DNA from: a phage
DNA length: 64,000 nt
NCBI GenBank assembly: GCA_008273105.1
Contig: GCA_008273105.1_4080.1
Direction: 5' to 3' (one strand)
Below are positions 28,743 through 45,048 of the stretch, one piece after another; within the stretch, counting starts at the first letter, position 1, and each line of letters starts with the position of its first letter. A program made the position numbers and the translations under genes. The notes under the pieces were generated by a model that was not told the DNA's origin, did not search any database, and worked only from the letters and a program-made list of their open reading frames with translations.

Positions 28743-28961
28743 TTAGATAATAGAATATTTCTTTAGTGATAATGCGTCTTCTGTCGGTTGATATTCTACA
28801 CCGTTCCCGTTATCTACCTTAGTGAGTAAACCTTTATCAATGAGTTTTTTGATGGTACGGTTTCCCTGTTGAAAACTGGTGAAGTGTGAATCATTACGAA
28901 AGGTATAACCGTGCTTCACTGCTTCATCAATAGTTTTCTTTTCGATTTTAGATAATTTCAT
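28743..28961 (-). CDS. hypothetical early protein, possible HTH DNA-binding
   Basis: Start set at MKLSKIEKK downstream of TTGACA-N17-TATTAT; HTH assignment is a guess from sequence appearance. Confidence 0.45.
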   Translation of the reverse strand: MKLSKIEKKTIDEAVKHGYTFRNDSHFTSFQQGNRTIKKLIDKGLLTKVDNGNGVEYQPTEDALSLKKYSII

Positions 28962-29017
28962 TTTGTTTCTCTCTCTGTGTTGGTATAGATACATAATACT
29001 AAAACATTTGAGTACTG

Positions 29018-29272
29018 TCAACGTGATATTAGTTTTATTTTTTTATTGTATTGTTGGTGTTCATATAGATTAATTTTTCCAGTACTCTCGATCACTATTC
29101 TATTGTTAGTGTCTACGTCGATTACACGTAGTTTCCCGTTGCTTAACTTCCTAGGCAATAGACTACCATTAATAAACTCATTAGCAAGCTGTACGGCCTT
29201 TGAGATGATTCTCTGTGGGGCTTTATAGTGTACCCGTAATACATTATCGTTTGATAGTTGAACCTTAATCAT
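29018..29272 (-). CDS. hypothetical early protein
   Basis: ORF 84 aa. Confidence 0.5.
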   Translation of the reverse strand: MIKVQLSNDNVLRVHYKAPQRIISKAVQLANEFINGSLLPRKLSNGKLRVIDVDTNNRIVIESTGKINLYEHQQYNKKIKLISR

Positions 29273-29285
29273 TTTGTTTATCCTA

Positions 29286-29311
29286 TAAAAAAGGCGGGAA
29301 CAGTTCCCGCC
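29286..29311 (-). terminator. intrinsic terminator
   Basis: Hairpin ggcgggaacagttcccgcc followed on minus strand by TTTTTTAT, just downstream of 29335..29730. Confidence 0.6.
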
Positions 29312-29334
29312 GTGTTGTTAGTACTGCAATGTTA

Positions 29335-29730
29335 TTAGATAACCTGGCGGCGTTTACTGTATACTGTTACACGGTTTCCTTTACGGTCATGACGGATCTC
29401 TTTCTGGTTACGAATCAGTTCACTTGGACGCTTAAGGTTTGCCAGGTGATCCGCGTGAGTCCATGCATTTGCGTTAACTGTAACTTCAATATCAGAACCT
29501 TCCAAGAAGTCATCTTGAGCGTTCAGTACTTCAGCCAGTTCTTGAGCTTTCTTCAGTTCTGCTTCAGTAAGTACAGGCTCAGGTGAATTCACAATATCAG
29601 AGATCTCTTTGAACTGTACCGCCCAGCGTTGTCCTTTCGGTGCATCTTTGCCCATGTCTTTAAATGTTTCACCTTCTTCACGAGCAACGATGCGAGCTTG
29701 TTCACGGGTAGCGAAGAATTTAGTAATCAT
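29335..29730 (-). CDS. hypothetical early protein (paralog of 41617..41880)
   Basis: Shares KFFATREQARI, TFKDMG, RWAV, DRKGNRVTVY with 41617 gene. Confidence 0.55.
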   Translation of the reverse strand: MITKFFATREQARIVAREEGETFKDMGKDAPKGQRWAVQFKEISDIVNSPEPVLTEAELKKAQELAEVLNAQDDFLEGSDIEVTVNANAWTHADHLANLKRPSELIRNQKEIRHDRKGNRVTVYSKRRQVI

Positions 29731-29829
29731 GGTGTACATCCTATTAGTTAAGTTAATTAGTACTACAAGTTAGAGTCTATTATAAAGTACTATCTGGGCA
29801 ATGTCAAATAGTACTTTAAATGGATTCTA

Positions 29830-30153
29830 TTACATGTCTTTCTTACGTTTTACATCGTAGTAACGAACTGTAATTTCTTTGTTGATCTCTTCCTCGATGC
29901 GGTGAATAACTTTTTCTTTCGGGTTGAAACCTATTACAGTTTCTTTAATGATCTCCAAGCCCGTGTATTCGCCTTGTGTACCGTAACCGTAAGTAAAGGT
30001 TTCATGTCCCAGGTCTTCCCAGCGGTCACCAATCAATGCAGACACGTAGCATGAGTGGTAAGTATTGCCGTGGCTATCAGTCCACCGATTAACTTTAATG
30101 TCAAAGGAAGTTACAATTTTCATTTCTACTTTCTGGGTAAGGATCATAGCCAT
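29830..30153 (-). CDS. hypothetical early protein (paralog of 35992..36315)
   Basis: Shares RWTDSxGNTYHSC, FTYGY and C-terminal VKRKKD. Confidence 0.55.
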   Translation of the reverse strand: MAMILTQKVEMKIVTSFDIKVNRWTDSHGNTYHSCYVSALIGDRWEDLGHETFTYGYGTQGEYTGLEIIKETVIGFNPKEKVIHRIEEEINKEITVRYYDVKRKKDM

Positions 30154-30242
30154 TTTAATTTCTCTCTTTGTTAGGTGGGGAACTATTCCCCACTTGATGT
30201 AAAATATTATACAGTACTAAAAACTATTGTCAAACTATTTTA

Positions 30243-30443
30243 TCAAATTGTTTCCCATTTCATGTTACCCGCTTTACGCTGTGAAACAGGAATAAACATG
30301 TTATTAATGTTACTAATATAACCGACCTGTAAGTCACGCTGTGAACCATACGCCCGACTTGCTGCATTTTTAGCACCGCGTTCTGATTTATAAACGCCGC
30401 TGGATACTGTAAAGCCTACTACACCGAAAGTAAAATGTTTCAT
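30243..30443 (-). CDS. hypothetical early protein
   Basis: ORF 66 aa; TTGACA-N16-TATAAT and AGAGGAA SD upstream; long duplicated leader further upstream. Confidence 0.55.
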   Translation of the reverse strand: MKHFTFGVVGFTVSSGVYKSERGAKNAASRAYGSQRDLQVGYISNINNMFIPVSQRKAGNMKWETI

Positions 30444-30493
30444 TTTGTATTCCTCTTTGTGGTTGATGTAAGTATTATACTCGTTTAATTTCT

Positions 30494-30600
30494 ATTGTCA
30501 AACTATTTTATCAGGGGAGGTTTTCGTATGTCTTACTCCTGGACTACTTAACGGGGAGTTACTTGTTTCGTTCCCCGTCCTGATGTAAAACATTATACGC
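30494..30600 (-). repeat. about 107-bp structured leader repeat (copy 1)
   Basis: Near-identical to 40926-41035; contains hairpin acggggag...ctccccgt and the early promoter -10 region. Confidence 0.7.
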
Positions 30601-30766
30601 TTATCGTGATACTTTGCAAGTACTTTTTAAAAATAGTTTTCAGTACTATCAAATACTAGCCGCCAGCATATAATAGATACATTTATGCACCCTGTGGGCT
30701 GATTTGTTTCTATGCGTATATAATAGCAAAGGGACTGACCGGAGTCAATCCCTTTTTTAATTCTTT

Positions 30767-30916
30767 TTAAACTTGTTTTGGGTTGCGATATGTGATAGCG
30801 TTCGGGTACATTTGTTTAATGTTATTCCATGCCTGGTTAACATTGTAACCACTTGAGCGAATCAGTTGGTTACTACCGACACCTTGAAACACTACTTCGA
30901 ATAAGAATTCTTTCAT
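30767..30916 (-). CDS. hypothetical small protein (49 aa, below ORF-track cutoff)
   Basis: Manual translation MKEFLFEVVFQGVGSNQLIR...; AGGTGA SD; ATGA overlap with upstream gene. Confidence 0.4.
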   Translation of the reverse strand: MKEFLFEVVFQGVGSNQLIRSSGYNVNQAWNNIKQMYPNAITYRNPKQV

Positions 30917-31086
30917 GCTTTCACCTCGCGATCTGCTTTACCTTTACGCCACGACATTACTAATTGTTCGCGTTGCCATAAGTCGAGTGATACAAAAAGT
31001 TTTGCGGTATCACTTTTAGGATACTCGCCATTAGTACCTAACCGATAAAACAGATCTTTCAGTACTGATAATTCTACTTGAATCAT
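30913..31086 (-). CDS. hypothetical small protein (57 aa, below ORF-track cutoff)
   Basis: Manual translation MIQVELSVLKDLFYRLGTNGEYPK...; AGGAG SD; ATGA overlaps both ends. Confidence 0.45.
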   Translation of the reverse strand: MIQVELSVLKDLFYRLGTNGEYPKSDTAKLFVSLDLWQREQLVMSWRKGKADREVKA

Positions 31087-31175
31087 TTTATTACTCCTGA
31101 TTGCGTTAATACTTCTACTATTGCATGAATGATCATAAGTACAGCTAAAACAATAATCATCGGATTCATTTGCAT
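31083..31175 (-). CDS. hypothetical small hydrophobic peptide (30 aa)
   Basis: MQMNPMIIVLAVLMIIHAIVEVLTQSGVIK; AAGGAG SD 8 nt upstream; first gene of a 3-gene mini-operon. Confidence 0.35.
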   Translation of the reverse strand: MQMNPMIIVLAVLMIIHAIVEVLTQSGVIK

Positions 31176-31192
31176 AAGCTGTACTCCTTATA

Positions 31193-31405
31193 TTAATCTT
31201 TCAGCCAATGATCTTGAATGAATTTTTCACAGAATCCCTGTTTCATGGATTCTAACAGGCGTTCGCGGTGAGCGGCGGCATATTGCTCAGTACTATGCGT
31301 TACGCCAGGCTGATAACGTGATACCCCATCCGGTCCGATGTATTGTACATCCCACGGTTTTTCGTTAGTATCAGACCATTTACGAACGATTAGTTGACCT
31401 TGCAT
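31193..31405 (-). CDS. hypothetical early protein
   Basis: ORF 70 aa; AGGAAA SD; UTR hairpin. Confidence 0.55.
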   Translation of the reverse strand: MQGQLIVRKWSDTNEKPWDVQYIGPDGVSRYQPGVTHSTEQYAAAHRERLLESMKQGFCEKFIQDHWLKD

Positions 31406-31489
31406 TTTTCTTTCCTCTTAGTGGGGAGAATCATTTCTCCCCTTCATGTAACTTATTATACAGTACTATAATCTATTGTCAAATACTTT

Positions 31490-31678
31490 TTAAAGTTTAT
31501 GAATCAATTCTTTATCTAAGCGATAGCGTACATTATTAATGGTAACAGCATTATTTTTAATGCTACGCTGTACAGGTCCACCAGCAATAACAAACGTTGC
31601 TTTATTACCCCGAACAATGATAGCACTTCCAGGATTACCGAAATCATCTTGTACTAAAATACTTGATAAGTTTTCCAT
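31490..31678 (-). CDS. hypothetical early protein
   Basis: ORF 62 aa; AGGAAA SD; UTR hairpin aggggaagatgtttcccct. Confidence 0.55.
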   Translation of the reverse strand: MENLSSILVQDDFGNPGSAIIVRGNKATFVIAGGPVQRSIKNNAVTINNVRYRLDKELIHKL

Positions 31679-31756
31679 TTTTATTTCCTCTTAGTAGGGG
31701 AAGATGTTTCCCCTTGATGTAAGTACTATAACAGTACTTAAAACTAAATGCAAGTA

Positions 31757-32113
31757 CTATGATAAAATCATGATAGGATATTCACTATCGATCAGTACCT
31801 CGAATCCGAACCCTTCGTACCATTCTTTAAGATTAAAGGCGTTATCTTCTCCCGTATCGCATTCTAAGATGATACAATCTGAATCATCGGCGGCATCGAT
31901 AAAGGCATTCATTAATTCGTTACCTTCACCATTGCCCCGACTATCAGGATCAACATAAAGAGAATCAATAAACGCTACACGGTCATAATCAAGATCCGGT
32001 GCAATGATTCCACGTTTAACAAACCAGTACTGCAACTGTGCTACTTTGCCCTGTACTTGATAGCCAGTGATCTCGCCATTGTCAGTAGTACGCGTGATAT
32101 GTTGTATTCCCAT
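31757..32113 (-). CDS. GNAT-like acetyltransferase (tentative)
   Basis: VAFIDSLYVDPDSRGNGEGNELMNAF resembles GNAT motif A (R-x-x-G-x-G); short for a GNAT. Confidence 0.35.
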   Translation of the reverse strand: MGIQHITRTTDNGEITGYQVQGKVAQLQYWFVKRGIIAPDLDYDRVAFIDSLYVDPDSRGNGEGNELMNAFIDAADDSDCIILECDTGEDNAFNLKEWYEGFGFEVLIDSEYPIMILS

Positions 32114-32142
32114 GATTTCAATCCTCAGTTAAGATATAAAAT

Positions 32143-32170
32143 ATTATACACTATCTTTCAGTACTGTCAA
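32143..32170 (-). promoter_or_regulatory. sigma70-type promoter (TTGACA-N16-TATAAT)
   Basis: Minus strand TTGACA gtactgaaagatagtg TATAAT upstream of 31757 gene. Confidence 0.6.
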
Positions 32171-32176
32171 TACTTT

Positions 32177-32434
32177 TTATCTCATAGATCTATGCCAACA
32201 ATTACGCGGATCTCTTTTAAAAGTACTATCATGATCCTCCTGGCAAGTAATACAATACATGCACCCTATAACGGCCTGGCGTCGATTCTCAGGGATTTTA
32301 TCGCCGCAGTCGAGGCAATGTACTAGTGATTCTCTTTGTGCGTTAATTTGCTTTCTAGCGTGGTTAACGGCGGCCTGAATCACTGCGTTAATCTCGTCTT
32401 GTTCGGCCCCGTCTTTCGCGAATCCTACAGCCAT
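32177..32434 (-). CDS. traR: TraR/DksA-family C4 zinc-finger protein
   Basis: CLDCGDKIPENRRQAVIGCMYCITCQ matches the TraR/DksA zinc-finger pattern C-x2-C-G-x2-I-P-x2-R ... C-x2-C-Q. Confidence 0.65.
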   Translation of the reverse strand: MAVGFAKDGAEQDEINAVIQAAVNHARKQINAQRESLVHCLDCGDKIPENRRQAVIGCMYCITCQEDHDSTFKRDPRNCWHRSMR

Positions 32435-32763
32435 TATTTTAACCTCATTATAAAAATACTATAGTACTGTAATGCTACAATAATACTACTAGTGCTAATC
32501 TTATTCAAACCACATGATACTACATATCCACCAGCATTACCACGGATAGTAACGCCTTTGTACTGTCTATATAAATTCAACTGCGTATATTGCCTTTGAT
32601 CAAGAATTGATCAGAATTATACGCCTTATGCTAAATTGATCCAGTACTTTTTTGATCATTTATTGATCGATATTATATAGTTACATTTGTGCACCCTATG
32701 GGTTAGTGACGTTCTCGTCTTGATGTAAGTATTATGCCAGTACTGGAGGATATTGTCAATAGA

Positions 32764-32961
32764 TTATTTTAATTTTTTTCTGTCATTGATTAATGCTTTC
32801 AGTACTATACTAATGATTTGCAATGATTCATCAATGACTATAAAATTATTCTCTTTCATTAGATGATAGTTACCATTGATTGTATATTCTAAGGAGTACT
32901 GTTTACGTTTAATTTTTGATAATGTTTCTATTTGTTTTTGTACTGATTTCATGCTAATCAT
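32764..32961 (-). CDS. hypothetical early protein
   Basis: ORF 65 aa. Confidence 0.5.
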   Translation of the reverse strand: MISMKSVQKQIETLSKIKRKQYSLEYTINGNYHLMKENNFIVIDESLQIISIVLKALINDRKKLK

Positions 32962-33066
32962 TGTTAAACGTCCTGTAACGCATTCTAACGAGATAAACGG
33001 TTTAGTACTGACATTGTATAGGGTAATGAATTAAAGCCCACCAGCGTTAACTAGTGGGCTATAATC

Positions 33067-33210
33067 TTACATCTTGCGGATAATCTTAACAGTATCTTTC
33101 ACCGATTTACCGTCTTGCTGGCATTGCTCGATCATTGCGTATTGTTCTGCGGTCAGATCCTCGCCAGTTTTTGCCAGTACTGCGTCGATGAATGAATCCA
33201 GTGCGATCAT
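33067..33210 (-). CDS. hypothetical small protein (47 aa, below ORF-track cutoff)
   Basis: Manual translation MIALDSFIDAVLAKTGEDLTAEQYAMIEQCQQDGK...; hairpin downstream. Confidence 0.4.
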   Translation of the reverse strand: MIALDSFIDAVLAKTGEDLTAEQYAMIEQCQQDGKSVKDTVKIIRKM

Positions 33211-33309
33211 TTTGTTTCTCTCTTAGGTTAAGTTAACTACTGTTGATAAAACTTATTATACAGTACTATCAAACTATGTCAATAACTTTAATAGTACTGG
33301 TAATATATT

Positions 33310-33489
33310 TTAGCGGTAGTCGTCGTATGCTTTATTCACCTGGCGAATGTAACTTTCAAAGGCTTCGTCTACCGTTTCATACTCCCGAACATAATCACCA
33401 TAGGAAACCACATACATACCTTTTTGATCTTCAAACGACATGATGATAGAATCCAGGCCGATGATTTCAGTTTTTGCGATGATAGCCAT
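33310..33489 (-). CDS. hypothetical small protein (59 aa, below ORF-track cutoff)
   Basis: MAIIAKTEIIGLDSIIMSFEDQKG...; preceded by TTGACA-N17-CATAAT and AAGGA SD. Confidence 0.5.
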   Translation of the reverse strand: MAIIAKTEIIGLDSIIMSFEDQKGMYVVSYGDYVREYETVDEAFESYIRQVNKAYDDYR

Positions 33490-33523
33490 TTTTAATTCCT
33501 TAGTAGTGTAGTTGATAAAAGTT

Positions 33524-33552
33524 ATTATGTCAGTACTATCAAACTATGTCAA
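33524..33552 (-). promoter_or_regulatory. sigma70-type promoter (TTGACA-N17-CATAAT)
   Basis: Minus strand TTGACA tagtttgatagtactga CATAAT; AGTACTG sits just upstream of the -10, as in several other promoters. Confidence 0.55.
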
Positions 33553-33571
33553 TAGTACTGTGATAATATTT

Positions 33572-33784
33572 TTAGTTAATGATAGTCAGTGTAAAATTGT
33601 AATCCCCTGCCTGGTATAGTACTTTGTCGCCGAACGTTCCAACACGTTTCATATTGCAATAGATACCCATAACACTTTTTACATCTTTGATATTCCGAAC
33701 GCCAGTAATATCCTTGTTGAAAGTATCATGATCAGAAAATAAAACTTGTTTTGCATTTTTCAGTACAGTGCGGATATTAGCCAT
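33572..33784 (-). CDS. hypothetical early protein
   Basis: ORF 70 aa; UTR hairpin ggggagaactattctcccc upstream. Confidence 0.55.
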   Translation of the reverse strand: MANIRTVLKNAKQVLFSDHDTFNKDITGVRNIKDVKSVMGIYCNMKRVGTFGDKVLYQAGDYNFTLTIIN

Positions 33785-33876
33785 TTTGTTTTTTCTCTGT
33801 TAGTGGGGAGAACTATTCTCCCCTTGATGTAAACTATTATACAGTACTATAATCTATTGTCAAACTATTTTTTATA

Positions 33877-34218
33877 TTATTCGAAATCTTCCGGTACTGA
33901 CTGATAATCATCTTCACCATAAGCACTTTCTAACCGCTCACCAGTGTAATCATCAGTTAGTGAGTCATCCTCATAGTTCACGTCTACGCCAGTGATGTAA
34001 AACTGGCTATCGTCTGGATCATTGAAATTAATTTTTTGGATGTTTACAATAACTGTATTGATGCCCAGGACACCGCCATCAGCCGTTACAAAGTACTGAT
34101 AGTTTTCACAACCGCCTGAATTGAAACCGTAATTAATTTCGGCCCGACCATCATTTAAACGCAGTACCTGGGCGATGATTTCATTTTCAAAGTTAGATTG
34201 AGCAATTGAGATAGTCAT
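33877..34218 (-). CDS. hypothetical early protein, acidic C-terminus
   Basis: ORF 113 aa. Confidence 0.55.
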   Translation of the reverse strand: MTISIAQSNFENEIIAQVLRLNDGRAEINYGFNSGGCENYQYFVTADGGVLGINTVIVNIQKINFNDPDDSQFYITGVDVNYEDDSLTDDYTGERLESAYGEDDYQSVPEDFE

Positions 34219-34428
34219 GATTCGTTTCCTTATTACCAGGGGAAACCGTTTCCCCTTGCGATGTAAAACATTATACGCTTATTGAGATAGTTTGCAAGTA
34301 CTTTTTAAAAATAGTTTTCAGTACTCAAACATTATACAATAGATACACTCCTGCACCCTGTGGGCTAGTGAGCTATCTCTCAATGAATATATAATAGCAA
34401 AATGGCTGACCGAAGTCAACCACTTTTT

Positions 34429-34566
34429 TCATTTATTTTTAGCTTTTAGAATCGCCGCCTTTCGCGTCATGCCTTGCTTGATGTACTCCTTTACTTTCGC
34501 TTTTTTAGCGTTTACCTTGTCTGCTTTCGTTTTAGGAGTACTGTAAATTATACTGTTAGGATTCAT
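34429..34566 (-). CDS. hypothetical small basic protein (45 aa)
   Basis: MNPNSIIYSTPKTKADKVNAKKAKVKEYIKQGMTRKAAILKAKNK; Lys-rich; GGTGA SD; abuts upstream gene stop. Confidence 0.4.
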   Translation of the reverse strand: MNPNSIIYSTPKTKADKVNAKKAKVKEYIKQGMTRKAAILKAKNK

Positions 34567-34656
34567 TTAAATCACCATAAAGAATAGATAGGTTACTAAC
34601 AACGCCGCGATCAATGCACCGACCAGGGCCGAACTGTAATAAGCTAATGATTTCAT
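34567..34656 (-). CDS. hypothetical small hydrophobic peptide (29 aa)
   Basis: MKSLAYYSSALVGALIAALLVTYLFFMVI; ATGA overlap with upstream gene. Confidence 0.3.
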   Translation of the reverse strand: MKSLAYYSSALVGALIAALLVTYLFFMVI

Positions 34657-34805
34657 TTTTTAGCCTGAAAATAATGTTTAATTTGAGCGGCGGTCAGTGC
34701 ACAATTACGCAGGAAGTTTTCTGTATAACTGCGTCGAGTACTGAAAGAAAATTGACCTTTGCCGTTACCGATAGTAACATCAAACCGAGCATTATATTGT
34801 TTCAT
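34656..34805 (-). CDS. hypothetical small protein (49 aa)
   Basis: MKQYNARFDVTIGNGKGQFSF...; AGGAG SD; UTR hairpin ggggagaaccatttccccc. Confidence 0.5.
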
Positions 34806-34886
34806 TTTGATTCTCCTTGTATCAGGGGAGAACCATTTCCCCCTCTATGTAAACAATTATACAGTACTAAAAACTAATTGCAAGTA

Positions 34887-35033
34887 TTATTTTTTAGATT
34901 TACGCAAACTTTCTACCATCTCAGGAGTAAGGCCCGGTGGGTAGGAAACCACTTCATCAACGAAACGTAAAGGGAATACCCCAGCGAAAGGTGAACATGC
35001 TTTCTTAGTATTACTCTTTTTTGATGCTTTCAT
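34887..35033 (-). CDS. hypothetical small protein (48 aa)
   Basis: MKASKKSNTKKACSPFAGVFPLRFVDEVV...; AAGGAA SD; UTR hairpin. Confidence 0.45.
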   Translation of the reverse strand: MKASKKSNTKKACSPFAGVFPLRFVDEVVSYPPGLTPEMVESLRKSKK

Positions 35034-35102
35034 TTCATATTCCTTAATTAGTGGGGAGAATCATTTCTCCCCTTCATGTAAAACATTATACAGTACTGAA
35101 AA

Positions 35103-35312
35103 CTAATTGCAAGTACTATTTGAAAGTAAATGCTCATACGCTGCATTAACTACATTTTCAATAACCGACTGTACAGAAAGATCCCCCACGTCCTGGCTAT
35201 AGTAGAAATTGCTTACAGTGGTGTCATCGTATGCAAATACTTTACCAGGTACTGCATCAATCACATACATATTAACCTTTAAGATGTCGATCTTATCCTG
35301 TACAGTAAGCAT
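35103..35312 (-). CDS. hypothetical early protein
   Basis: ORF 69 aa. Confidence 0.5.
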   Translation of the reverse strand: MLTVQDKIDILKVNMYVIDAVPGKVFAYDDTTVSNFYYSQDVGDLSVQSVIENVVNAAYEHLLSNSTCN

Positions 35313-35317
35313 ATTAA

Positions 35318-35590
35318 TTAACCTTTTAAGTACTGGCTTAAGTAGTCTTTTTGATCTTCGGTGATTGCAGTCATCTTCCCTAGTACTGGATTAATGATAT
35401 AATCCCCTGTAACGTCCTGTAACGCATTCTCAGGCGGTGAAACGGCTGGGGTAGCCATAGCCATTGCCTGGACTTGTTCGACGCTGTAACGCTCATAAAG
35501 GCGGCATTCTTCCGGTGTTAACATAGCATCAGTACGCTTCATCGGTTTAATGATGCTTTCGATCTCATTCAGTACTTGATTAACGTTCAT
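35318..35590 (-). CDS. hypothetical early protein
   Basis: ORF 90 aa. Confidence 0.5.
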   Translation of the reverse strand: MNVNQVLNEIESIIKPMKRTDAMLTPEECRLYERYSVEQVQAMAMATPAVSPPENALQDVTGDYIINPVLGKMTAITEDQKDYLSQYLKG

Positions 35591-35641
35591 GGTATAATCC
35601 CCAATATAAGCGGCCTAAATCGACCGCTAACGATGTTTTGA

Positions 35642-35911
35642 TTAATAGGTGTAAGGTTGACGCTCAAACAATGATTGTACGCTGTACGCCCCGCTAATGG
35701 GCTTCGCTGGCAAATCAATTTTATATTGTTCACGCTTAAAGATAATAAAACGGCAATTGTTTTTAACATCAAAATTGATTGAACGTTCCAGGAGTTTTCC
35801 ATCGTGCACAAATACAAGATAACCGCTTGGTACTTGTTTTGTAGAACTGGTTGCAACCATAGACCGACGAACATGTGTACCTGCATCGATTAAAGTACTG
35901 ATATTTTTCAT
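35642..35911 (-). CDS. hypothetical early protein
   Basis: ORF 89 aa with AGAGGA SD; preferred over overlapping low-complexity frame 35587..35886. Confidence 0.5.
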   Translation of the reverse strand: MKNISTLIDAGTHVRRSMVATSSTKQVPSGYLVFVHDGKLLERSINFDVKNNCRFIIFKREQYKIDLPAKPISGAYSVQSLFERQPYTY

Positions 35912-35991
35912 TTTACTATCCTCTTAAGTTGATTTAATTTCTTTCCCCTATGCAGACACTGTATCAAAGTATCTGCATAAAGTAAAGCTAA

Positions 35992-36315
35992 TTAAAGATC
36001 TTTTTTACGTTTTACATCCTGTACAGTACAATGCAACGGGATAGACAAATCATTACACAAACGAGTAAGGGAGGTTTCAACAGTATCAAGCCCGTCTACT
36101 GATTCCTTTAAGAGATCAAACGCCGTTTGTTGATATGCATCTTCATAGCCATAAGTAAATGATTCAACCGCCAGATCATTCAAACCGTTATCCAGTTCAA
36201 CGCTTACATGACAAGAATGATAAGTATTGCCATATGAATCAGTCCAACGTTTACCGTCAACATTGATTGCATGGATTGCAGCCAGGGAAACGGTGTTGAT
36301 GATAGTTTTAGCCAT
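35992..36315 (-). CDS. hypothetical early protein (paralog of 29830..30153)
   Basis: Shares RWTDSYGNTYHSC, FTYGY, VKRKKD; AAGGAA SD. Confidence 0.55.
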   Translation of the reverse strand: MAKTIINTVSLAAIHAINVDGKRWTDSYGNTYHSCHVSVELDNGLNDLAVESFTYGYEDAYQQTAFDLLKESVDGLDTVETSLTRLCNDLSIPLHCTVQDVKRKKDL

Positions 36316-36406
36316 TTTAGTATTCCTTAAATTAATATGTGTCGTCTTGATAAAATCTATTATGCCAGTACTATCAAACTATGTCAATAGTACTGTGATA
36401 ATATTT

Positions 36407-36619
36407 TTACTTACTTTCTTTCGCTGCTTTATATGTTGCCACTGCCATAACCACATCAGCACGAACAAAGTTTTTAACCGTGTCACTGTAATAATTGATC
36501 GCATCATCTATATCTGCGAACGTCCGATACATACCGCACCAAGATACTTTATAACCTTCTTTCACTTCTGCCAGTTTAACGATAGTCTTGTTAACTTTGA
36601 TTTTAGTAATGATAGCCAT
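36407..36619 (-). CDS. hypothetical early protein
   Basis: ORF 70 aa; AGGAAA SD; UTR hairpin. Confidence 0.55.
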   Translation of the reverse strand: MAIITKIKVNKTIVKLAEVKEGYKVSWCGMYRTFADIDDAINYYSDTVKNFVRADVVMAVATYKAAKESK

Positions 36620-36705
36620 TTTAGTTTCCTTGTAGTGGGGAGAATCATTTCTCCCCTTGATGTAATGTATTATACTTTATTCGATTTACTTTGCAAGTAC
36701 TTTTT

Positions 36706-36933
36706 TTAATTTAATTCATCCAGGCAAAGGATACGCTCAACGCCCAAATCAGTTAAACTAATCGACGGCACTTGATAGGTTTCAATGTATGCTACACTTG
36801 CCCACTGACCGAACTCATTAACGGCCCAGGTATTCATTGCATTTTGCAATTCCGCACCTGCCTTGTTAGTAATGACTGCAACTACTTGTTCGTTGCCAGT
36901 AGTACCAGATACGCGAGTAATGATAATAGCCAT
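36706..36933 (-). CDS. hypothetical early protein
   Basis: Start set at MAIIITRV after AAGGAA; six-frame extension MFYIERG is the translated -10 region. Confidence 0.5.
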   Translation of the reverse strand: MAIIITRVSGTTGNEQVVAVITNKAGAELQNAMNTWAVNEFGQWASVAYIETYQVPSISLTDLGVERILCLDELN

Positions 36934-37170
36934 TGTTTTGATTCCTTTGATTTGGAAGGAGAACCGTTTCCCCCTCTCGATGTAAAACATTATACGCTAA
37001 TCTCTTAATCGTGCAAGTACTTTTTATTACTTTTTGCAAAATACTTTAAACGCTCTCAATCGCATTCTAACGACCTTAACGCCACCAGCTAGGGCGATGT
37101 ATCAGATAATCAGTTTAATGCGTTAGAATCGATTCTAGGCGGTGCTGGTGGACTGGAATACTACAGACAC

Positions 37171-37197
37171 AAAAAAGCCCACTGTTTAAGGTGGGCT
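37171..37197 (-). terminator. intrinsic terminator
   Basis: Hairpin agcccacc ttaaacag tgggct followed on minus strand by TTTTTT; identical copy at 37906-37932. Confidence 0.65.
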
Positions 37198-37218
37198 AGT
37201 GATTCAGTACTTTAATTG

Positions 37219-37701
37219 TTATGCTTCAACTTTGCGATGAGCTTCGATCCATTCCTCGCGAGTCATACCGCTTTCTTTGATAGCGTCCAGTACTACCGCA
37301 ATGCAGTTACCGCGTACAGGAATCATATGTTCTTCCCCGTTATCAAGTACTACAGTAACACGTTCTTGAATCCATTTTTTAGGTTTAGATTCTGGCTTAT
37401 CTTCACCATACTTAACCGCCAGGGCTTTATGTGCCATTTCTACAACTACTTCCAGATCCAATCCAGCCACCGCCGCCTGGATACTTTCGATTGTTGCTTG
37501 CAGTTCGGCTTCACGGGCTTTTTTCTGTTCTTCCAGTTCTGCTACCTTTTTGGCTTGCAGTTCTTTAGCTTCACTGTACGCAATGTTAAAATTGTTGCGT
37601 ACTGCTTTCATGGTATCGTTATCCAGGTCAGCCAACAATTCAGCAGCAATAACAGTATCGTTTGAAATCAGTGCTTTCAGGAATGATTTTACATTAGCCA
37701 T
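37219..37701 (-). CDS. H-NS-like nucleoid-associated protein (tentative)
   Basis: Helical charged N-terminal region (AKELQAKKVAELEEQKKAREAELQ); C-terminus VVLDNGEEH...PVRGNC...AIKESGMTREEWI loosely resembles, from memory, the H-NS C-terminal DNA-binding region; start at MANVKSF after GAGGA. Confidence 0.35.
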   Translation of the reverse strand: MANVKSFLKALISNDTVIAAELLADLDNDTMKAVRNNFNIAYSEAKELQAKKVAELEEQKKAREAELQATIESIQAAVAGLDLEVVVEMAHKALAVKYGEDKPESKPKKWIQERVTVVLDNGEEHMIPVRGNCIAVVLDAIKESGMTREEWIEAHRKVEA

Positions 37702-37905
37702 TTTATAAATCCTCAATTAAAGTTTAGTTTACGTTTATTAGTGTATCAAAGTTTTATCGACGTGTCCAGTTTTTCGTTCGACTTACTGGCGGTCTACTTA
37801 GTGCTCCCCGTCTTGATGTAATACATTCTACGCCTTTTTGTGGTAATGTCAACTACTATTTTAAAACTATTTTTAAAGTATGCAGTACTACGATAATACA
37901 AAAAC

Positions 37906-37932
37906 AAAAAAGCCCACTGTTTAAGGTGGGCT
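37906..37932 (-). terminator. intrinsic terminator (second copy)
   Basis: Same hairpin agcccacc...tgggct + T-run downstream of 37950..38249. Confidence 0.65.
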
Positions 37933-37949
37933 AGTGATTCAGTACTATA

Positions 37950-38249
37950 TTATAAACAGTTAATTACTCCGGTGTGCGTTACTTTCTCAGTATCCATAAC
38001 CGTGACCGATCCACGCTTAGTACTTACATCGTAATAAATTGTCGTGCTACCTTTTTCGTCTTCTTCATGGAACGGGCCGCTTTTAAATGCTTCTGGCTGG
38101 ATCTCTAAATCCTTTAAAACAATCTCGCCAGTACTTTCATCTGTCATCGCAACAGTGCACTGAATGAATTTTTCACTACTTACATCTAACGACGCATTAA
38201 CAGCGAAAGAGGAAACAGATAAAGCCAGGGCGATGATTGCAATTTTCAT
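37950..38249 (-). CDS. secreted/periplasmic protein with N-terminal signal peptide
   Basis: MKIAIIALALSVSSFAVNA-SLD: n-region, hydrophobic core and AxA-like cleavage site; AAGGA SD. Confidence 0.55.
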   Translation of the reverse strand: MKIAIIALALSVSSFAVNASLDVSSEKFIQCTVAMTDESTGEIVLKDLEIQPEAFKSGPFHEEDEKGSTTIYYDVSTKRGSVTVMDTEKVTHTGVINCL

Positions 38250-38333
38250 TTGATTATCCTTAGTTACCAGGGGGAACCGCTCCCCCGTGCGATGTAAAAT
38301 ATTGTACAGTACTAAAAACTAATTGCAAGTACT

Positions 38334-38570
38334 TTATGATTTTTTATAAAACATTTCGGCAGTAATATTTTTACCCGTTGGTTGTACTTTATCCAGAATT
38401 TTTTGATGCCCTGGCCGTCCAAATGAATATGATCCGTAAACCGTAAACCAGTAGTTACCCTCAGTGTTTACATGTACAGCACAATAGGGAACGCCCCGCG
38501 ATTCATCACCAATAAAGTGTGATACCGTTCCCGTTACATTAGCAGACGTTGATTTGATTTGTTCAAGCAT
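38334..38570 (-). CDS. hypothetical early protein
   Basis: ORF 78 aa; AAGGAA SD; UTR hairpin gggggaaccgctccccc. Confidence 0.55.
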   Translation of the reverse strand: MLEQIKSTSANVTGTVSHFIGDESRGVPYCAVHVNTEGNYWFTVYGSYSFGRPGHQKILDKVQPTGKNITAEMFYKKS

Positions 38571-38679
38571 TTTCTTATTCCTTAGTTACCAGGGGGAACC
38601 GCTCCCCCTATGCAAAACATTATACGCGTTTAAAAACTAATAGCAAGTATTTTAATAAAAAGTATTTGAAAAATAATTG

Positions 38680-38708
38680 TTGACAACTGCATCCAGTACT
38701 GGCATAAT
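38680..38708 (+). promoter_or_regulatory. plus-strand sigma70-type promoter (TTGACA-N17-CATAAT), antisense to early genes
   Basis: TTGACA actgcatccagtactgg CATAAT, followed about 28 nt later by CCCACAGGGTGCA at 38737-38749. Confidence 0.45.
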
Positions 38709-38788
38709 TACTACATAAAGACGATACAGTCACTAACCCACAGGGTGCATAGATCCGTCTATTAAATGATTCAGTACTTAACAATAAA

Positions 38789-38806
38789 GGGGATCAATCG
38801 ATCCCC
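38789..38806 (-). terminator. hairpin terminator downstream of 38813..39034
   Basis: ggggatcaatcgatcccc followed on minus strand by TTTATTGTT. Confidence 0.45.
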
Positions 38807-38812
38807 TATGTA

Positions 38813-39034
38813 TTACTTAGTAAGGTATAAACAGAAGTCACCTTTATTTGCTACGCCGCCAGTGTAACGCGATGAATAGTTAGAAACGTCCTGGACTTCT
38901 GCTATTACCAGTGTATCATCATTCAATTCGTCGCAGAAGCAAACGGCTGGATCTTTTACGCCGATCTTGTCGGCATGTTCCCGCATAGATTTAACCAGTG
39001 CTTCCAGTTGAGAAAGAGTAGTGATATTAGCCAT
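38813..39034 (-). CDS. hypothetical early protein
   Basis: Start set at MANITTL after GAGGA; upstream extension is translated hairpin. Confidence 0.5.
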   Translation of the reverse strand: MANITTLSQLEALVKSMREHADKIGVKDPAVCFCDELNDDTLVIAEVQDVSNYSSRYTGGVANKGDFCLYLTK

Positions 39035-39118
39035 TGTATTTTCCTCATTACCAGGGAGAACCATTTCTCCCCTCTATGTAAACTATTATACAGTACTGAA
39101 AACTAATTGCAAGTACTT

Positions 39119-39307
39119 TTAATTAAATTCCATAAAATCATTCTCAACGTGCACAACAATTTGATTGTTTTTAAAGTCCGCAGCGAACTCGATGCAATCA
39201 TAAACCGCTTTTTGTGTTACAATGCTATGAGTACCAATCGGATTAATAGGGGATTGAATTGTTTCAATCTCGTTCCCTTGCTCATTAACAATTAAAATAT
39301 TAAACAT
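39119..39307 (-). CDS. hypothetical early protein
   Basis: ORF 62 aa; AGGAG SD. Confidence 0.5.
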   Translation of the reverse strand: MFNILIVNEQGNEIETIQSPINPIGTHSIVTQKAVYDCIEFAADFKNNQIVVHVENDFMEFN

Positions 39308-39363
39308 CGCTGTTACTCCTGGGTAGTGTTAACTCGATATAAAGTATTATACGCCTTTATTGC

Positions 39364-39567
39364 TTAGTGTCCAGTACTTTTTAAAACATATTCATAAACA
39401 CTACGCACATCATTGATCATCGCCTGGCGGTTAGCAGGTAACGCACCAGGATCGCCACTATCCCAGGCATTGATAAAACTCCCCAAATCATGAAAGATTT
39501 TATTCTGTAAGCCGATTAACTGCAATTCTTTTTCTTCAAGCTCTTTGATACGGTCAATTAAAAGACT
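39364..39567 (-). CDS. hypothetical early protein
   Basis: Start set at MSLLIDRIK after GAGGA. Confidence 0.45.
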   Translation of the reverse strand, partial: SLLIDRIKELEEKELQLIGLQNKIFHDLGSFINAWDSGDPGALPANRQAMINDVRSVYEYVLKSTGH

Positions 39568-39587
39568 CATTAGATAATCCTCAGTAC

Positions 39588-39875
39588 TTAATTGTAAGAT
39601 CCGCAACGGTTACAATAGTGCCCGTCTTCCTCGTCATCGTCAACGAATTGACCGACGAAATTATCTACTTTCTCTTTGAGATTCTGATAATTGTTTTCAA
39701 CTTCCTTTAGACGTTCCTGGTAGTATTCCAGGGCTTGCACATACGCCGCCTCAGCCGTTTTCGCTCTTAAGGCTAAATTCATGCCACGCGTTTCATCGTA
39801 CATCCAAAAGCCATCGGTGCACTCACTGATTGACAATGATTTGGTTAACACTTTATAGTCAATTACTTTGCTCAT
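39588..39875 (-). CDS. hypothetical early protein with C-terminal Cys pair
   Basis: Start set at MSKVIDYKVL after GAGGA; C-terminus HYCNRCGSYN. Confidence 0.45.
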   Translation of the reverse strand: MSKVIDYKVLTKSLSISECTDGFWMYDETRGMNLALRAKTAEAAYVQALEYYQERLKEVENNYQNLKEKVDNFVGQFVDDDEEDGHYCNRCGSYN

Positions 39876-39931
39876 TAGATAATCCTCAGTAAAGGCGGGA
39901 ACCACACCCGCCATTGATTCAGTACTGAATG

Positions 39932-40171
39932 TTACATTCCAACCATTGCAGCACGGATCGCCGTAGTGCTATACTTGAATCCGTCCGGTGTTGTAGTAGT
40001 ACCGTTGGCTTTTAATCTGCGGTACATACATTGGGCCGCAATATCTTTAGTTTTACATTGTGCGATGCAACTTTGAGCAAGCCGATATAATGACTCACCG
40101 TTATTAATCCACAATGAAACATTCCAATGAGTTTTGTTTTTGTGTCCGTTGTAAGTTTTAGTACTAGCCAT
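39932..40171 (-). CDS. hypothetical early protein (paralog of 41972..42211)
   Basis: Shares GHKNKTHWNVSLWINN.ESLYRLAQ and TPDGFKYSTTAIRAAMVGM. Confidence 0.55.
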   Translation of the reverse strand: MASTKTYNGHKNKTHWNVSLWINNGESLYRLAQSCIAQCKTKDIAAQCMYRRLKANGTTTTPDGFKYSTTAIRAAMVGM

Positions 40172-40261
40172 TTTTAAATCCTCGTTTGAGCGGGGAACCA
40201 TTCCCCGCCTCGATATAAAGTATTATACGCTTTTAAACTTAGTTTGCAAGTACTTTTTAAA

Positions 40262-40873
40262 TTAATATGCGATTGATTCTACTACGTCATCAATAACATT
40301 GAATTGATATTCGTTACCCTCAATCAGTGCCGTAATGTTTTCAGTAGTGAATTGATCCTCATATGCATTCTCTAAATCACGGTACAACTTGCGGGATAAT
40401 TCACGAATAGTTTCAGTGAGTAGTTCCTCAAGCTCATTAACTAACGTTTCTTGTTTTGCGGTTAAATCAGTGTAAGCCGATTCAATGTACCCGCTTACAG
40501 TATTCTCATGTGAGTACAAAGAATGAGAACGCTTTACACTCATCGCCAAATCATCTTCATTCAGCAGGTGACGGATTGAGCGATACTTAGTTAATGCTCT
40601 TACCTTGCGTAAAAACTTCACTGCGTCAACGTGGTCAGTACTGATTGATGCACCGTCACCCTGGGACCAAAAACCACTGAATTGTATTTCAGCGTCATTA
40701 ATGCCATATTCCGGTAGTACTGTTTCTTTATAGTATTCAATTTCACTTTCAGAAAAATAATTGTCGTTTGAGTTTTTTTCACGTTCCCGAACCAGTTCGA
40801 TAGCCGCCGCTTGTTGTTCTGCGTTCAGTTCAGAAAAAGCCATAACGAAAGTAGTAGTAGTGATAGTTTTCAT
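40262..40873 (-). CDS. acidic hypothetical protein
   Basis: ORF 203 aa, many D/E residues, motif FSGFWSQGDGASI; GAGGG SD. Confidence 0.55.
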   Translation of the reverse strand: MKTITTTTFVMAFSELNAEQQAAAIELVREREKNSNDNYFSESEIEYYKETVLPEYGINDAEIQFSGFWSQGDGASISTDHVDAVKFLRKVRALTKYRSIRHLLNEDDLAMSVKRSHSLYSHENTVSGYIESAYTDLTAKQETLVNELEELLTETIRELSRKLYRDLENAYEDQFTTENITALIEGNEYQFNVIDDVVESIAY

Positions 40874-40925
40874 TTTGTAACCCTCATTCAGTAGTTTATG
40901 TAAGTATTATACGCTTTTAAAAACA

Positions 40926-41035
40926 TTTGTCAAACTATTTTATCAGGGGAGTTTTTCGTGTGCCTTACTCCTGGGCTACTTAACGGGGAGTTACTTATTT
41001 CGTTCCCCGTCCTGATGTAAAACATTATACGCCTT
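40926..41035 (-). repeat. about 107-bp structured leader repeat (copy 2)
   Basis: Near-identical to 30494-30600. Confidence 0.7.
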
Positions 41036-41095
41036 TAAACATAGTTTGCAAGTACTTTTTAAAAATAGTTTTCAGTACTGAATATTAAAAAAGTA

Positions 41096-41124
41096 TTGAC
41101 AGCATTATCAAGTACTGGCATAAT
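41096..41124 (+). promoter_or_regulatory. plus-strand sigma70-type promoter (TTGACA-N17-CATAAT)
   Basis: Followed by CCCACCGGGTGCA at 41146-41158; convergent with an inverted copy at 41203-41216. Confidence 0.45.
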
Positions 41125-41298
41125 ATACCCCATGACAACAGCTAACCCACCGGGTGCACAATTGTAACTATACTAAACTAATTTTTCTATAGATACACTC
41201 CCGCACCCTATGGGCTACGGCTTATCTGCCAATGAATACATTATGCCAGTACTGACAAAATAAGTCAATACCGGCAATTGTAAAGATTTGTAAACTGC

Positions 41299-41529
41299 TT
41301 ATACTGCAATCGCGTCCAGGCTATAATAATAATAAGTGCCGTATTGGTGTACTTTATTACCTTTTATTTCAGTACTGAATGAATCCGAACGGTTTGCATA
41401 TGATGTTAATTTAAAGTACTTTGATTTGCTGATACGTTGCCATACACCGCAGATCCGCTGTAAGTAAGTAGTTTTATTAGTGGTAGTATCTTTTACGGTT
41501 TTAACTTCAGTCATATACATATTAGTCAT
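41299..41529 (-). CDS. hypothetical early protein
   Basis: ORF 76 aa. Confidence 0.5.
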   Translation of the reverse strand: MTNMYMTEVKTVKDTTTNKTTYLQRICGVWQRISKSKYFKLTSYANRSDSFSTEIKGNKVHQYGTYYYYSLDAIAV

Positions 41530-41616
41530 TTTTATTACTCCAGGTTATAGGCGGGAAGTGTTCCCGCTCTCGATGTAAAACATTATACGCCATTAAACAT
41601 AGTTTGCAAGTACTTT

Positions 41617-41880
41617 TTATTCAAGTACTGCAATCTTTTTAGTACGGTACACGGTCACGCGGTTGCCCTTTCGGTCGAGCTTTATTTCTACCACTCGACG
41701 CGATACACTATCGGGACTTTTTAAGGCCGCTAACCAGTACTGTAATGATCTGGCGGTACTACGCTTTACAATGGCCCAACGTTTACCACGTTCCGATTGT
41801 ACGCCCATATCTTTAAACGTTGCCCCGGCGTGGCGTGCGGCGATCCGAGCTTGTTCACGCGTCGCAAAATACTTAATATT
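41617..41880 (-). CDS. hypothetical early protein (paralog of 29335..29730)
   Basis: Start set at MNIKYFATREQ; shared motifs with 29335 gene. Confidence 0.5.
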   Translation of the reverse strand, partial: NIKYFATREQARIAARHAGATFKDMGVQSERGKRWAIVKRSTARSLQYWLAALKSPDSVSRRVVEIKLDRKGNRVTVYRTKKIAVLE

Positions 41881-41971
41881 CATGCTGTTGCCCTTATCGT
41901 TGGTGTATGAATAAAACACTATTATAAAGTACTATCCCCGTGCAATAGTACTTTAAATAAATTCTATTCTA

Positions 41972-42211
41972 TTACATTCCAACCATTGCCGCACGGATCG
42001 CAGTAGTGCTATATTTGAATCCGTCCGGTGTTTTATCTTGTCCAGTCTGTTCTAAAAATAACATCATATGACGGGCCGCATCATTGCGATTAGTGCTATC
42101 GTTAATAAAGTCCTGGGCCAACCGGTATAATGATTCATCGTTATTAATCCAAAGGCTTACATTCCAATGAGTTTTGTTTTTGTGACCTAAGAACATTTTT
42201 GATTTAGCCAT
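41972..42211 (-). CDS. hypothetical early protein (paralog of 39932..40171)
   Basis: ORF 79 aa; GAGGA SD. Confidence 0.55.
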   Translation of the reverse strand: MAKSKMFLGHKNKTHWNVSLWINNDESLYRLAQDFINDSTNRNDAARHMMLFLEQTGQDKTPDGFKYSTTAIRAAMVGM

Positions 42212-42306
42212 TTTTTTTTAATCCTCTTATATAGTGGGGAACTATTCCCCACCTGATGTAAAACATTATACGCCATTAAACATAGTTTGCAAGTACTTTA
42301 TTAAAC

Positions 42307-42669
42307 TTATTTGTAAATTTTACCACTGTCAGCCCATACCAGGAAACGAGGCATATTATCCCATGCATCTTGTTTTAAGTTTAAGCCGTGCAATTCCTCA
42401 GTTGTTGCCATCCCTGGTACTGGCTTACTACACACCGCGAAATTTTCGCCCATATACTGATAAACCATCGTCAAATCATTTGAGATCATTATATGGATCA
42501 TTGAATCCAGCATCAAAGTAGCGGCGTATTGTTCACGCTTAAGCGGCAACATTGCAATAAGTTCCCGATAAGCTGCAATGTGAATTTTTACAGTTTCAGC
42601 CGGAAGACCTTTCATCTCATCGCGGAAGTTTACCAGGTTAAGCATGATTTTATTGATTTGAGTCGCCAT
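42307..42669 (-). CDS. hypothetical early protein
   Basis: Start set at MATQINKIM; six-frame extension MFYIESG is the translated -10 region. Confidence 0.5.
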   Translation of the reverse strand: MATQINKIMLNLVNFRDEMKGLPAETVKIHIAAYRELIAMLPLKREQYAATLMLDSMIHIMISNDLTMVYQYMGENFAVCSKPVPGMATTEELHGLNLKQDAWDNMPRFLVWADSGKIYK

Positions 42670-42724
42670 CGTTTTAATCTCTCTTAATGTGTAGCGGGAA
42701 GTGTTCCCGCTCTCGATGTAAAAC

Positions 42725-42752
42725 ATTATACGCTTTTATCAGTACGGTGCAA
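42725..42752 (-). promoter_or_regulatory. sigma70-type early promoter (TTGCAC-N16-TATAAT)
   Basis: Minus strand TTGCAC ... TATAAT gttttacatcgag, then hairpin gcgggaagtgttcccgc. Confidence 0.55.
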
Positions 42753-42784
42753 GTACTTTCTACAAATACTTTTAAAATAGTTTT

Positions 42785-45047: not shown

Positions 45048-45048
45048 A

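Follow-up and report, generated by a model that had tools for sequence, protein, structure and literature searches.

A structured early leader RNA of a jumbo coliphage, related to the T7 A1-A2 promoter spacer and apparently exchanged between phage families

In phage HK022, the put RNAs act without a dedicated phage protein: a put RNA binds the zinc-binding domain of the beta' subunit of RNA polymerase (RNAP), and pausing and termination are suppressed (PMC9378689). In T4-type phages, PeSL cassettes combine repeated sigma-70-like early promoters with a G/C-rich stem-loop (GGGG...CCCC) and lie among small orphan genes, at sites of gene swapping (PMC2839356, PMC4122927). The early leader of phage T7 carries a boxA antiterminator (PMC3709561). 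Here we analyze a structured leader element that lies in two near-identical copies (A and B) and a third, diverged copy (C) within a 64,000-nucleotide (nt) stretch of phage DNA (NCBI GenBank assembly GCA_008273105.1, contig GCA_008273105.1_4080.1), which we call the window. The window is 93-98% identical to the Asteriusvirus phages PBECO4, 121Q, G17 and phAPEC6 and, by this measure, is an Asteriusvirus-type jumbo coliphage. We propose that copies A, B and C are probably a mobile early-expression cassette in which a sigma-70 promoter transcribes a structured leader RNA from its first nucleotide, and that the leader belongs to a family common to the T7 A1-A2 spacer, Rak2-like phages, some Vequintavirinae and some Justusliebigvirus phages.

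All features of the three copies are on the minus strand. Copy A begins with a promoter, P1 (30592..30619), that has a -35 box TTGCAA (30614-30619), a 16-nt spacer, a -10 box TATAAT (30592-30597) and a predicted start A at 30584. The 75-nt leader RNA element that follows (30510..30584) was delimited by minimum free energy (MFE) and centroid folds, by an RNAalifold analysis of 9 relatives and by a covariance-model match. Behind it lie a second promoter, P2 (30474..30501), which is TTGACA-N16-TATAAT with 12/12 consensus positions and a predicted start near 30467, and the gene that copy A is predicted to drive (30243..30443), which encodes a basic protein of 66 amino acids (aa; pI 10.2, phrog_7744, function unknown). 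Copy B has the same layout, with P1 (41024..41051, TTGCAA-N16-TATAAT, predicted start A at 41016), the 75-nt leader element (40942..41016, from the fold and a covariance-model match), P2 (40906..40933, TTGACA-N16-TATAAT) and a gene predicted to be driven by copy B (40262..40873), which encodes a 203-aa acidic protein (pI 4.5, phrog_5162, function unknown). For the latter, neither a Pfam match above cutoff nor a named PHROG function nor a relative in the PDB was found. P1 start sites were predicted from the geometry of T7 A1 (-10, 7 nt, then A).

The two copies are far more alike than their surroundings. The 75-nt folded cores are identical at 70/75 positions (93%), and a shared block of ~210 nt, from an AT-rich upstream region to the ATG, is 86% identical, while the flanks (240-250 nt) reach only 53-60%. 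The 5 differences within the core are confined to unpaired positions at which other family members differ as well, and a 25-nt core pattern occurs exactly 2 times in the 64 kb, with 0 occurrences expected from shuffles. An earlier note on this DNA had described two near-identical stretches, each with an early promoter, an acggggag hairpin, a second complementary segment and then a TTGACA-N16-TATAAT promoter, in front of different genes. The likeness is borne out (101 identical positions over the intervals of that note, or 92% of the longer one), every one of these parts is present, on the minus strand, and the 66-aa basic and 203-aa acidic proteins are indeed unrelated. That note missed the diverged copy C (37756-37817) and also the simpler units of this region, at least 20 in number, that consist of a promoter and a hairpin.

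For copies A and B, both the MFE and the centroid fold predict a closed three-way junction, and the RNAalifold consensus of the 9 relatives returns the identical structure. In copy A, the closing helix starts at the predicted +1 and pairs AUCAGG (30579-30584) with CCUGAU (30510-30515); inside it are hairpin H2 (30551-30578; ACGGGGA, a 14-nt loop, UCCCCGU), an unpaired UAAGUAG linker (30544-30550) and hairpin H3 (30516-30539; GGAG-UAAGACAUACGAAAAC-CUCC). The corresponding parts of copy B are the closing helix (41011-41016 with 40942-40947), H2 (40983-41010), the UAAGUAG linker (40976-40982) and H3 (40948-40971), and in the A/B fold the H3 loop between GGAG and CUCC reads UAAGNNNNACGAAAAN. Folding-energy z-scores range from -1.7 to -2.5, the value of -2.5 being that of an 89-nt stretch of copy B.

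Copy C was located by a promoter scan as a diverged relative of A and B (37852-37756). Its promoter (37825..37852, TTGACA-N16-TAGAAT, predicted start A at 37817) precedes an element without H2 (37756..37817), which is identified by a covariance-model match and by a BLAST link to T7-like phages. Here the long-range helix joins the 5' end to the 3' tail (AUC(AA)GACG, 37809-37817, with CGUCGAU, 37756-37762), the linker UAAGUAG lies at 37794-37800, and H3 (37766-37789) is CCAG-UAAGUCGAACGAAAAA-CUGG where A and B have GGAG/CUCC. In common with A and B are the start ACAUCAAGACGGGG, UAAGUAG and the H3 loop. The second promoter behind copy C is merely degenerate (TTGATA-N17-TAAACT), and the gene that copy C is predicted to drive (37219..37701) encodes a 160-aa protein (phrog_27871, function unknown). 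The whole promoter-leader-gene cassette has identical terminator hairpins (AGCCCACCTTAAACAGTGGGCT plus a T-run) on either side (37911-37932 and 37176-37197, minus strand), as if it had been inserted or duplicated together with its terminator.

A BLAST search with copy C leads to T7-like phages of Yersinia and E. coli, and in T7 itself the match falls between the annotated E. coli promoters A1 (498) and A2 (626). The T7 spacer reads CCGG-GGUCAA-CCGG-A-UAAGUAG-AC-A-GCCUG-AUAAGUCGCACGAAAAA-CAGGU-A-UUGAC, in which the final UUGAC is the A2 -35 hexamer, and the homologous stretch spans +39 to +96 of the annotated A1 transcript. Spacers of this type were found by BLAST in 488 phage records, one copy each; these T7-like phages infect Escherichia, Klebsiella, Salmonella, Yersinia, Enterobacter, Citrobacter, Serratia, Erwinia and other hosts. 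A covariance model (R1) built from T7-like A1-A2 spacers alone, with the window sequences excluded, and run with search filters off, finds exactly three sites in the 64 kb, all on the minus strand: copy C (31.7 bits, E ~2e-6), copy A (25.6 bits, E ~1e-4) and copy B (25.2 bits), the next best site scoring 11.1 bits. These matches demonstrate that the leader is homologous to the T7 spacer. The same model also matches Erwinia phage Hallingskeid, Salmonella phage 7t3, Klebsiella phage fENko-Kae01, phage LTH01 and several metagenomic contigs.

Across 19 T7-like and 15 myovirus-type sequences (A, B and C included), the UAAGUAG linker is invariant. H3 is a covarying stem of 4-5 bp with the loop UAAG-N4-ACGAAAA, and the stem itself changes from GGAG/CUCC in A and B to CCAG/CUGG in C, CCUG/CAGG in T7 and CUUG/CAAG in L016 and LTH01. 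The core of the family is an invariant single-stranded UAAGUAG, H3 with its conserved loop and a long-range helix. A sigma-70 early promoter before the element and a second promoter after it are part of the pattern, which A and B fit; the second promoter is degenerate in C, and contig L027 has a boxA in its place. The topology is not uniform. In the T7-likes, an H-type pseudoknot arises when the 3' tail base-pairs with the upstream hairpin's loop, whereas in A and B the tail pairs 5' of the hairpin and closes a three-way junction; an H-type pseudoknot is formed neither by A and B (tail with AUCAGG) nor by C (tail with the transcript 5' end, no H2). On this sequence comparison, copies A, B and C are members of the T7-group A1-A2 spacer RNA family, and we class them as a structural variant because the long-range helix is kept but the topology differs from that of the T7-likes.

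A gapped pattern scan of IMG/VR returned 19 distinct T7-like spacers (a strict fixed-spacing pattern matched phage 121Q alone). In their alignment, which covers the upstream hairpin S1, H3 and the pseudoknot between S1 loop and tail, 93% of cells pair, and both sides have changed at 10 of the 15 pairs, including 5 of the 6 pseudoknot pairs (variants GUCAA/UUGAC, GUCGGU/ACCGAC, GUCAUC/GAUGAC and AUUAG/CUAAU). None of 500 shuffles reaches these pairing values, a count that is not to be read as a probability because the sequences are phylogenetically clustered, and sliding the partners by 1-3 columns leaves 13-35% paired. In T7 itself, the paired strands are 536-539/546-549 for S1, 561-565/583-587 for H3 and 541-545/589-593 for the pseudoknot. 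One H3 pair is G:U in 8 of the 19 T7-likes, where the opposite strand would have C:A mismatches. Among 35 family members, H3 pairs occur as CG/GC (25/10), CG/GC/UA (23/10/2) and UA/AU (20/14), in an alignment (A4) that was fitted to the model and whose pair counts lean towards the structure. The long-range helix of the myovirus types, in which the tail pairs with the transcript 5' end, takes the forms AUCAGG/CCUGAU, AUC-GACG/CGUC-GAU, GACGG/CCGUC, AUCGAAG/UUUCGGU and GCGGC/GUCGC, and over 11 sequence types an element's own tail beats shuffled tails (combined Fisher p ~2e-6). This test supersedes a cross-type duplex energy matrix, which discriminates weakly because G-rich 5' parts pair with many C-rich tails. 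Metagenomic sequences add compensatory variants, GCUAA/UUAGC in L140 and a change from AUC..GAU to AUG..CAU in L085. Because the stems covary and the G:U pairs fit the sense strand only, the structure of the leader is very probably conserved and selected at the RNA level.

These data also bear on a reading in which the element works as DNA only, either as an UP-like or protein-binding sequence for P2 or as a recombination scar or homology patch, its hairpins being incidental. A-tracts precede the P2 -35, the T7 pseudoknot uses the A2 -35 hexamer itself as its 3' strand, and, like the PeSL cassettes of T4-likes (PMC2839356), the block marks junctions at which genes are replaced. However, the next -35 lies anywhere from 7 to ~47 nt beyond ACGAAAA, L027 has no following promoter, and in L013, L019, L040 and L140, whose -35 is more distant, other sequences maintain the pseudoknot. 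Unlike protein operators, moreover, the stems covary with pairing kept, and the G:U pairs are strand-specific. We consider an action at the DNA level alone very unlikely.

The element is not confined to one phage group or to one gene. A BLAST search with copy A finds it at 87-98% identity in ~38 Asteriusvirus genomes, which have two sites each (four when the long terminal repeat is counted), and at the same identity in unrelated ~140-kb phages, namely the Vequintavirinae A73, W70, A7_1 and A5-4 and the Justusliebigvirus phages muut, outra and EmilieFrey. In all of these relatives it sits between a first and a second sigma-70-type promoter, upstream of differing small genes, and in different phages it precedes six unrelated protein families. 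In rV5-like and other jumbo phages, the element is missing from homologs of the 203-aa gene, whose promoters are ordinary, and at the site of copy A the window and 121Q carry the 66-aa gene where G17 and other relatives carry a different 91-aa gene, with the homology breakpoint of this replacement at the P2 cassette. Six unrelated downstream families together with homologs of the 203-aa gene that lack the element demonstrate independence from the downstream gene, and the element therefore looks like a generic expression module and not a gene-specific switch. A metagenome scan gave 79 pattern matches, 21 of them real by the model; in representative bacterial genomes (185,579; 596 Gb), the pattern had 20 scattered non-enterobacterial matches, which is chance level, and no host copy was found.

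Exchange between phage families is demonstrated by the occurrence of the same leader in these groups. G17 (L067 607-882, Asteriusvirus) and muut (L002 2651-2926, Justusliebigvirus) share the leader and the same very acidic 91-aa gene; on sequence grounds, this is a whole promoter-leader-gene cassette that moved between phage families. Genes behind the motif are often acidic (the 91-aa gene, the 203-aa gene with pI 4.5, T7 ocr), which is a lead for anti-restriction DNA mimics.

The earlier note had read the leader as a shared attenuator or riboregulator. Its tandem-promoter leader with conserved secondary structure holds, but the switch that it suggested is not supported. Such a switch, attenuator or riboswitch-like, would gate P1 read-through into the downstream gene; the 5' leader position suits it, as do the two hairpins and a possible alternative pairing, CCAGGAG/CUCC-CC-UG, in place of the closing helix. 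This alternative is, however, not conserved in copy C or in the T7-likes, and we found no conserved, mutually exclusive pairing in the element. A terminator scan detected no terminator-like site in 30510-30584 or 40942..41016 and, on either strand, no hairpin with a U-run inside the element. Rfam returned no meaningful match for the whole window, for copy A (E up to 10) or for the T7 left end. There is no link to a gene family, and P2, which lies downstream of the element, bypasses any gate. A switch of this kind is extremely improbable. Two further candidate roles were tried and rejected: CCAGGAGUAAG as the dead ribosome binding site (RBS) of a vestigial gene start, because C-type and T7-type copies lose GGAG yet keep the pairing, and pairing of the UAAGUAGNCC linker with the downstream RBS (7 bp in copy B), which is not conserved in A, G17, muut or A73.

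How the leader works is a matter on which we can offer a proposal. The upstream host-type promoter P1 would yield a transcript that folds from +1 into a compact leader, and this nascent RNA would act in cis on the host RNAP that made it, keeping the polymerase processive or pause-resistant through the next promoter, downstream hairpins and terminators, as HK022 put RNA does. The leader would bind a host component conserved across Enterobacterales, and the proximal P2 would supply leader-less transcripts of the same gene. We put forward action on the host RNAP as a tentative possibility. It is likewise speculative that the UAAGUAG/UAAG-N4-ACGAAAA fold is a new class of leader RNA that binds host RNAP or an Enterobacterales-conserved factor and reprograms the first polymerases on the incoming phage genome. 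The element lies 0-55 nt from a strong promoter start, usually with a second promoter within 0-50 nt after it, and a boxA follows downstream in the T7 leader and, in consensus form, 14 nt after the motif in L027. In T7, a cut by RNase III at R0.3 separates the leader from the coding RNA, and genome entry depends on processive transcription by host RNAP. Removal at R0.3 makes a purely cis mRNA-stabilizing role hard to sustain in T7 and, together with the need for processivity, favors a leader that either acts on the polymerase during elongation or has a function once released. The phages concerned have only their hosts in common, and the invariance of unpaired nucleotides among them points either to a host partner or to strict demands of tertiary folding.

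Two observations concern the neighborhood of boxA. In T7 (L008 783-824), the hairpin just before boxA, GGUC-UAACGAAACC-UGACC followed by UAAGA, has an H3-like ACGAAAC loop, and in L027 (4113-4175) the full motif stands 14 nt before boxA. A boxB-like role for hairpins with ACGAAA loops is possible.

Besides the limits on the shuffle and pair counts given above, several points weigh against the proposed explanation. P1 of copies A and B is the promoter type of at least 20 gene-proximal units in the 25-44 kb region, and from this likeness to neighboring promoters we infer that it fires in the window phage. The closing helix AUCAGG/CCUGAU is invariant within the A/B type and draws its support from the other types and from folding energy. 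Tertiary folding alone could explain the invariant loops. Copies A and B each precede one small gene with the next promoter at once after it, and a need for antitermination is therefore not obvious. The minus strand of the window has no boxA (GCUCUUUAACAA) with up to one mismatch, and model R1 has no match in the HK022 genome at E up to 10.

The fold may instead stabilize the mRNA in cis. Formed from +1, it would hide the 5' triphosphate and block 5'-end-dependent access or scanning by RNase E, transcripts from P1 would outlive those from P2, and the conserved loops would serve tertiary packing only. 5' stem-loops are an established mRNA stabilizer in E. coli, all myovirus-type closing helices start at the predicted +1 (AUCAGG, AUCAAGACG and AUCGAAG), and every early unit of the region has a 5' hairpin. 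On the other side, T7-like transcripts have a separate 5' hairpin first and the motif follows only at ~39 nt, the T7 leader is removed from the coding RNA at R0.3, and simple hairpins need no invariant loops conserved over four phage lineages. We judge stabilization in cis to be unlikely. The release of T7 leader RNAs by RNase III fits a small RNA that acts in trans. On this reading, the domain would be cut off in the following A/U-rich stretch and accumulate early to serve as a decoy or sponge, its target being a host protein or RNA such as a nuclease, a chaperone or a defense sensor. Stable RNAs typically have 5' and 3' ends that pair with each other, as this domain does. Downstream of the fold, all types have A/U-rich single-stranded sequence; transcription is driven by very strong promoters, and the invariant unpaired nucleotides suggest a partner. 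Yet no terminator or defined 3' end was found, and no host counterpart points to a partner, because the motif is absent from the 185,579 representative bacterial genomes except at chance level. A trans-acting RNA is in our view quite improbable, and we retain, as a tentative proposal, the leader that acts on host RNAP.

We found no earlier description of the element. Neither Rfam nor the searchable literature describes the motif (searches with the motif sequence gave template listings, and the older T7 subscription literature was outside reach), and in the searchable literature we found no publication that treats the T7 A1-A2 spacer as a structured RNA and no mapping data for T7 5' or 3' ends. 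Papers on Rak2-like phages mention RpoD-like promoters and describe no leader.

The surroundings of the three copies are rich in simpler early units. Genes between about 25 and 44 kb (25000-44100) are on the minus strand, and at least 20 of them have upstream a repeated early-promoter unit with the order TTGCAA or TTGACA, 16-nt spacer, TATAAT, predicted start in ACAUC, hairpin, RBS and ATG. The 5' hairpin of these generic units is G/C-rich (GGGGAGAA...UUCUCCCC), and several of them, for example near 27650 and 36980, start with AUCGAGAGGG, the first 10 nt of the T7 A1 transcript. Hairpins of the GGGGAGAA..UUCUCCCC type also lie 3' of P2 in phages A73, LTH01 and EmilieFrey. On the minus strand, TTGACT lies within a 12-bp hairpin (AAAGGGATTGACTCCGGTCAGTCCCTTT) that precedes GCTATTATAT at two sites (30728-30755 and 34399-34426); the arrangement resembles a promoter with its -35 inside a hairpin. 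A second intergenic motif, AGCCCA-N-AGGGTGC-N6-GTATCTAT, lies upstream of P1 of A and B (~30655-30690 and 41170-41205) and at 43129-43148, all on the minus strand, and also in L065 (~3300-3340) and L151 (~1360-1390); upstream of B it can pair with GCACCCGGUGGGU ~45 nt further, and it may be another promoter class or another RNA. On the plus strand, 49500-63700 holds twelve tandem paralogous genes of ~1.2 kb, each of which starts with MLPFGRM(V/L)KYGN; every gene comes with a separate TATAAT and, upstream, a hairpin GCCAGTAC-N-GTACTGGC. In relatives, genes of this type are annotated as RCC1-like ("regulator of chromosome condensation"). Other repeat families lie at 5160-7150, 18000-24200 and 45000-49100; they comprise five 145-nt copies at ~450-nt spacing, an 11-copy 50-nt family inside minus-strand genes and eight 66-nt intergenic units.

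T7 A1 is among the most used promoters in transcription biochemistry, and the covarying pseudoknot ~39 nt into its transcript is absent from Rfam. Because the motif occurs in T7, jumbo, rV5-like and phi92-like phages, the element looks like a transferable module for early-gene control that relies on host machinery. It may also mark genes that phages need first and hardest, which would make these candidate anti-defense genes. Should a class of RNAP-binding leaders exist, the long-known and unexplained untranslated leader of T7 A1 would gain a function, and the fold would be one exchanged among T7-like podoviruses and Rak2-like jumbo, rV5-like and phi92-like phages.

The closest relative in architecture is the T7 early region (A1, A2 and A3 at 498, 626 and 750), where, as in the window, strong sigma-70 promoters stand in tandem ~120 nt apart (117-118 in the window) and where the A1-A2 spacer shares with A and B the UAAGUAG, the UAAG-N4-ACGAAAA hairpin and a 3' tail that pairs back. 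The tail of the T7 spacer pairs with the loop of a short CCGG hairpin, whereas in A and B it pairs with the first six nucleotides and a hairpin of 7 bp with a 14-nt loop is inserted. The T7 region comprises three promoters and a boxA ahead of a single operon, and A and B have two promoters, no boxA and single small genes. The E. coli rrn leader (P1-P2, boxB-boxA-boxC) likewise has tandem strong promoters ~120 nt apart and a structured, then A-rich spacer. T7-likes resemble it in a consensus boxA downstream, and in L027 the motif takes a boxB-like place, but the window has no boxA and model R1 gave no significant match to the rrnB leader (best 5.3 bits, E 0.5). PeSL-like traits in the window are the at least 20 promoter/stem-loop units, the swapped gene downstream of A and a cassette common to phage families. 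The PeSL stem-loop is, however, a terminator for upstream transcription, whereas the window hairpins lie between the -10 and the RBS and have no U-run, and A, B and C carry a larger, sequence-conserved RNA fold in contrast to a simple stem-loop. HK022 putL and putR, which by analogy are the functional model that we favor, are like the window element in having two related copies per genome, ~70 nt in length and with several helices, just downstream of early host-RNAP promoters; put is made of two stacked stem-loops, while the window element is a junction (a pseudoknot in the T7-likes) with other loops, and the two have no detectable similarity. In sum, the element is built like the T7 A1-A2 tandem promoters and, loosely, like rrn P1-P2, evolves in the manner of PeSL cassettes and may follow the logic of put.

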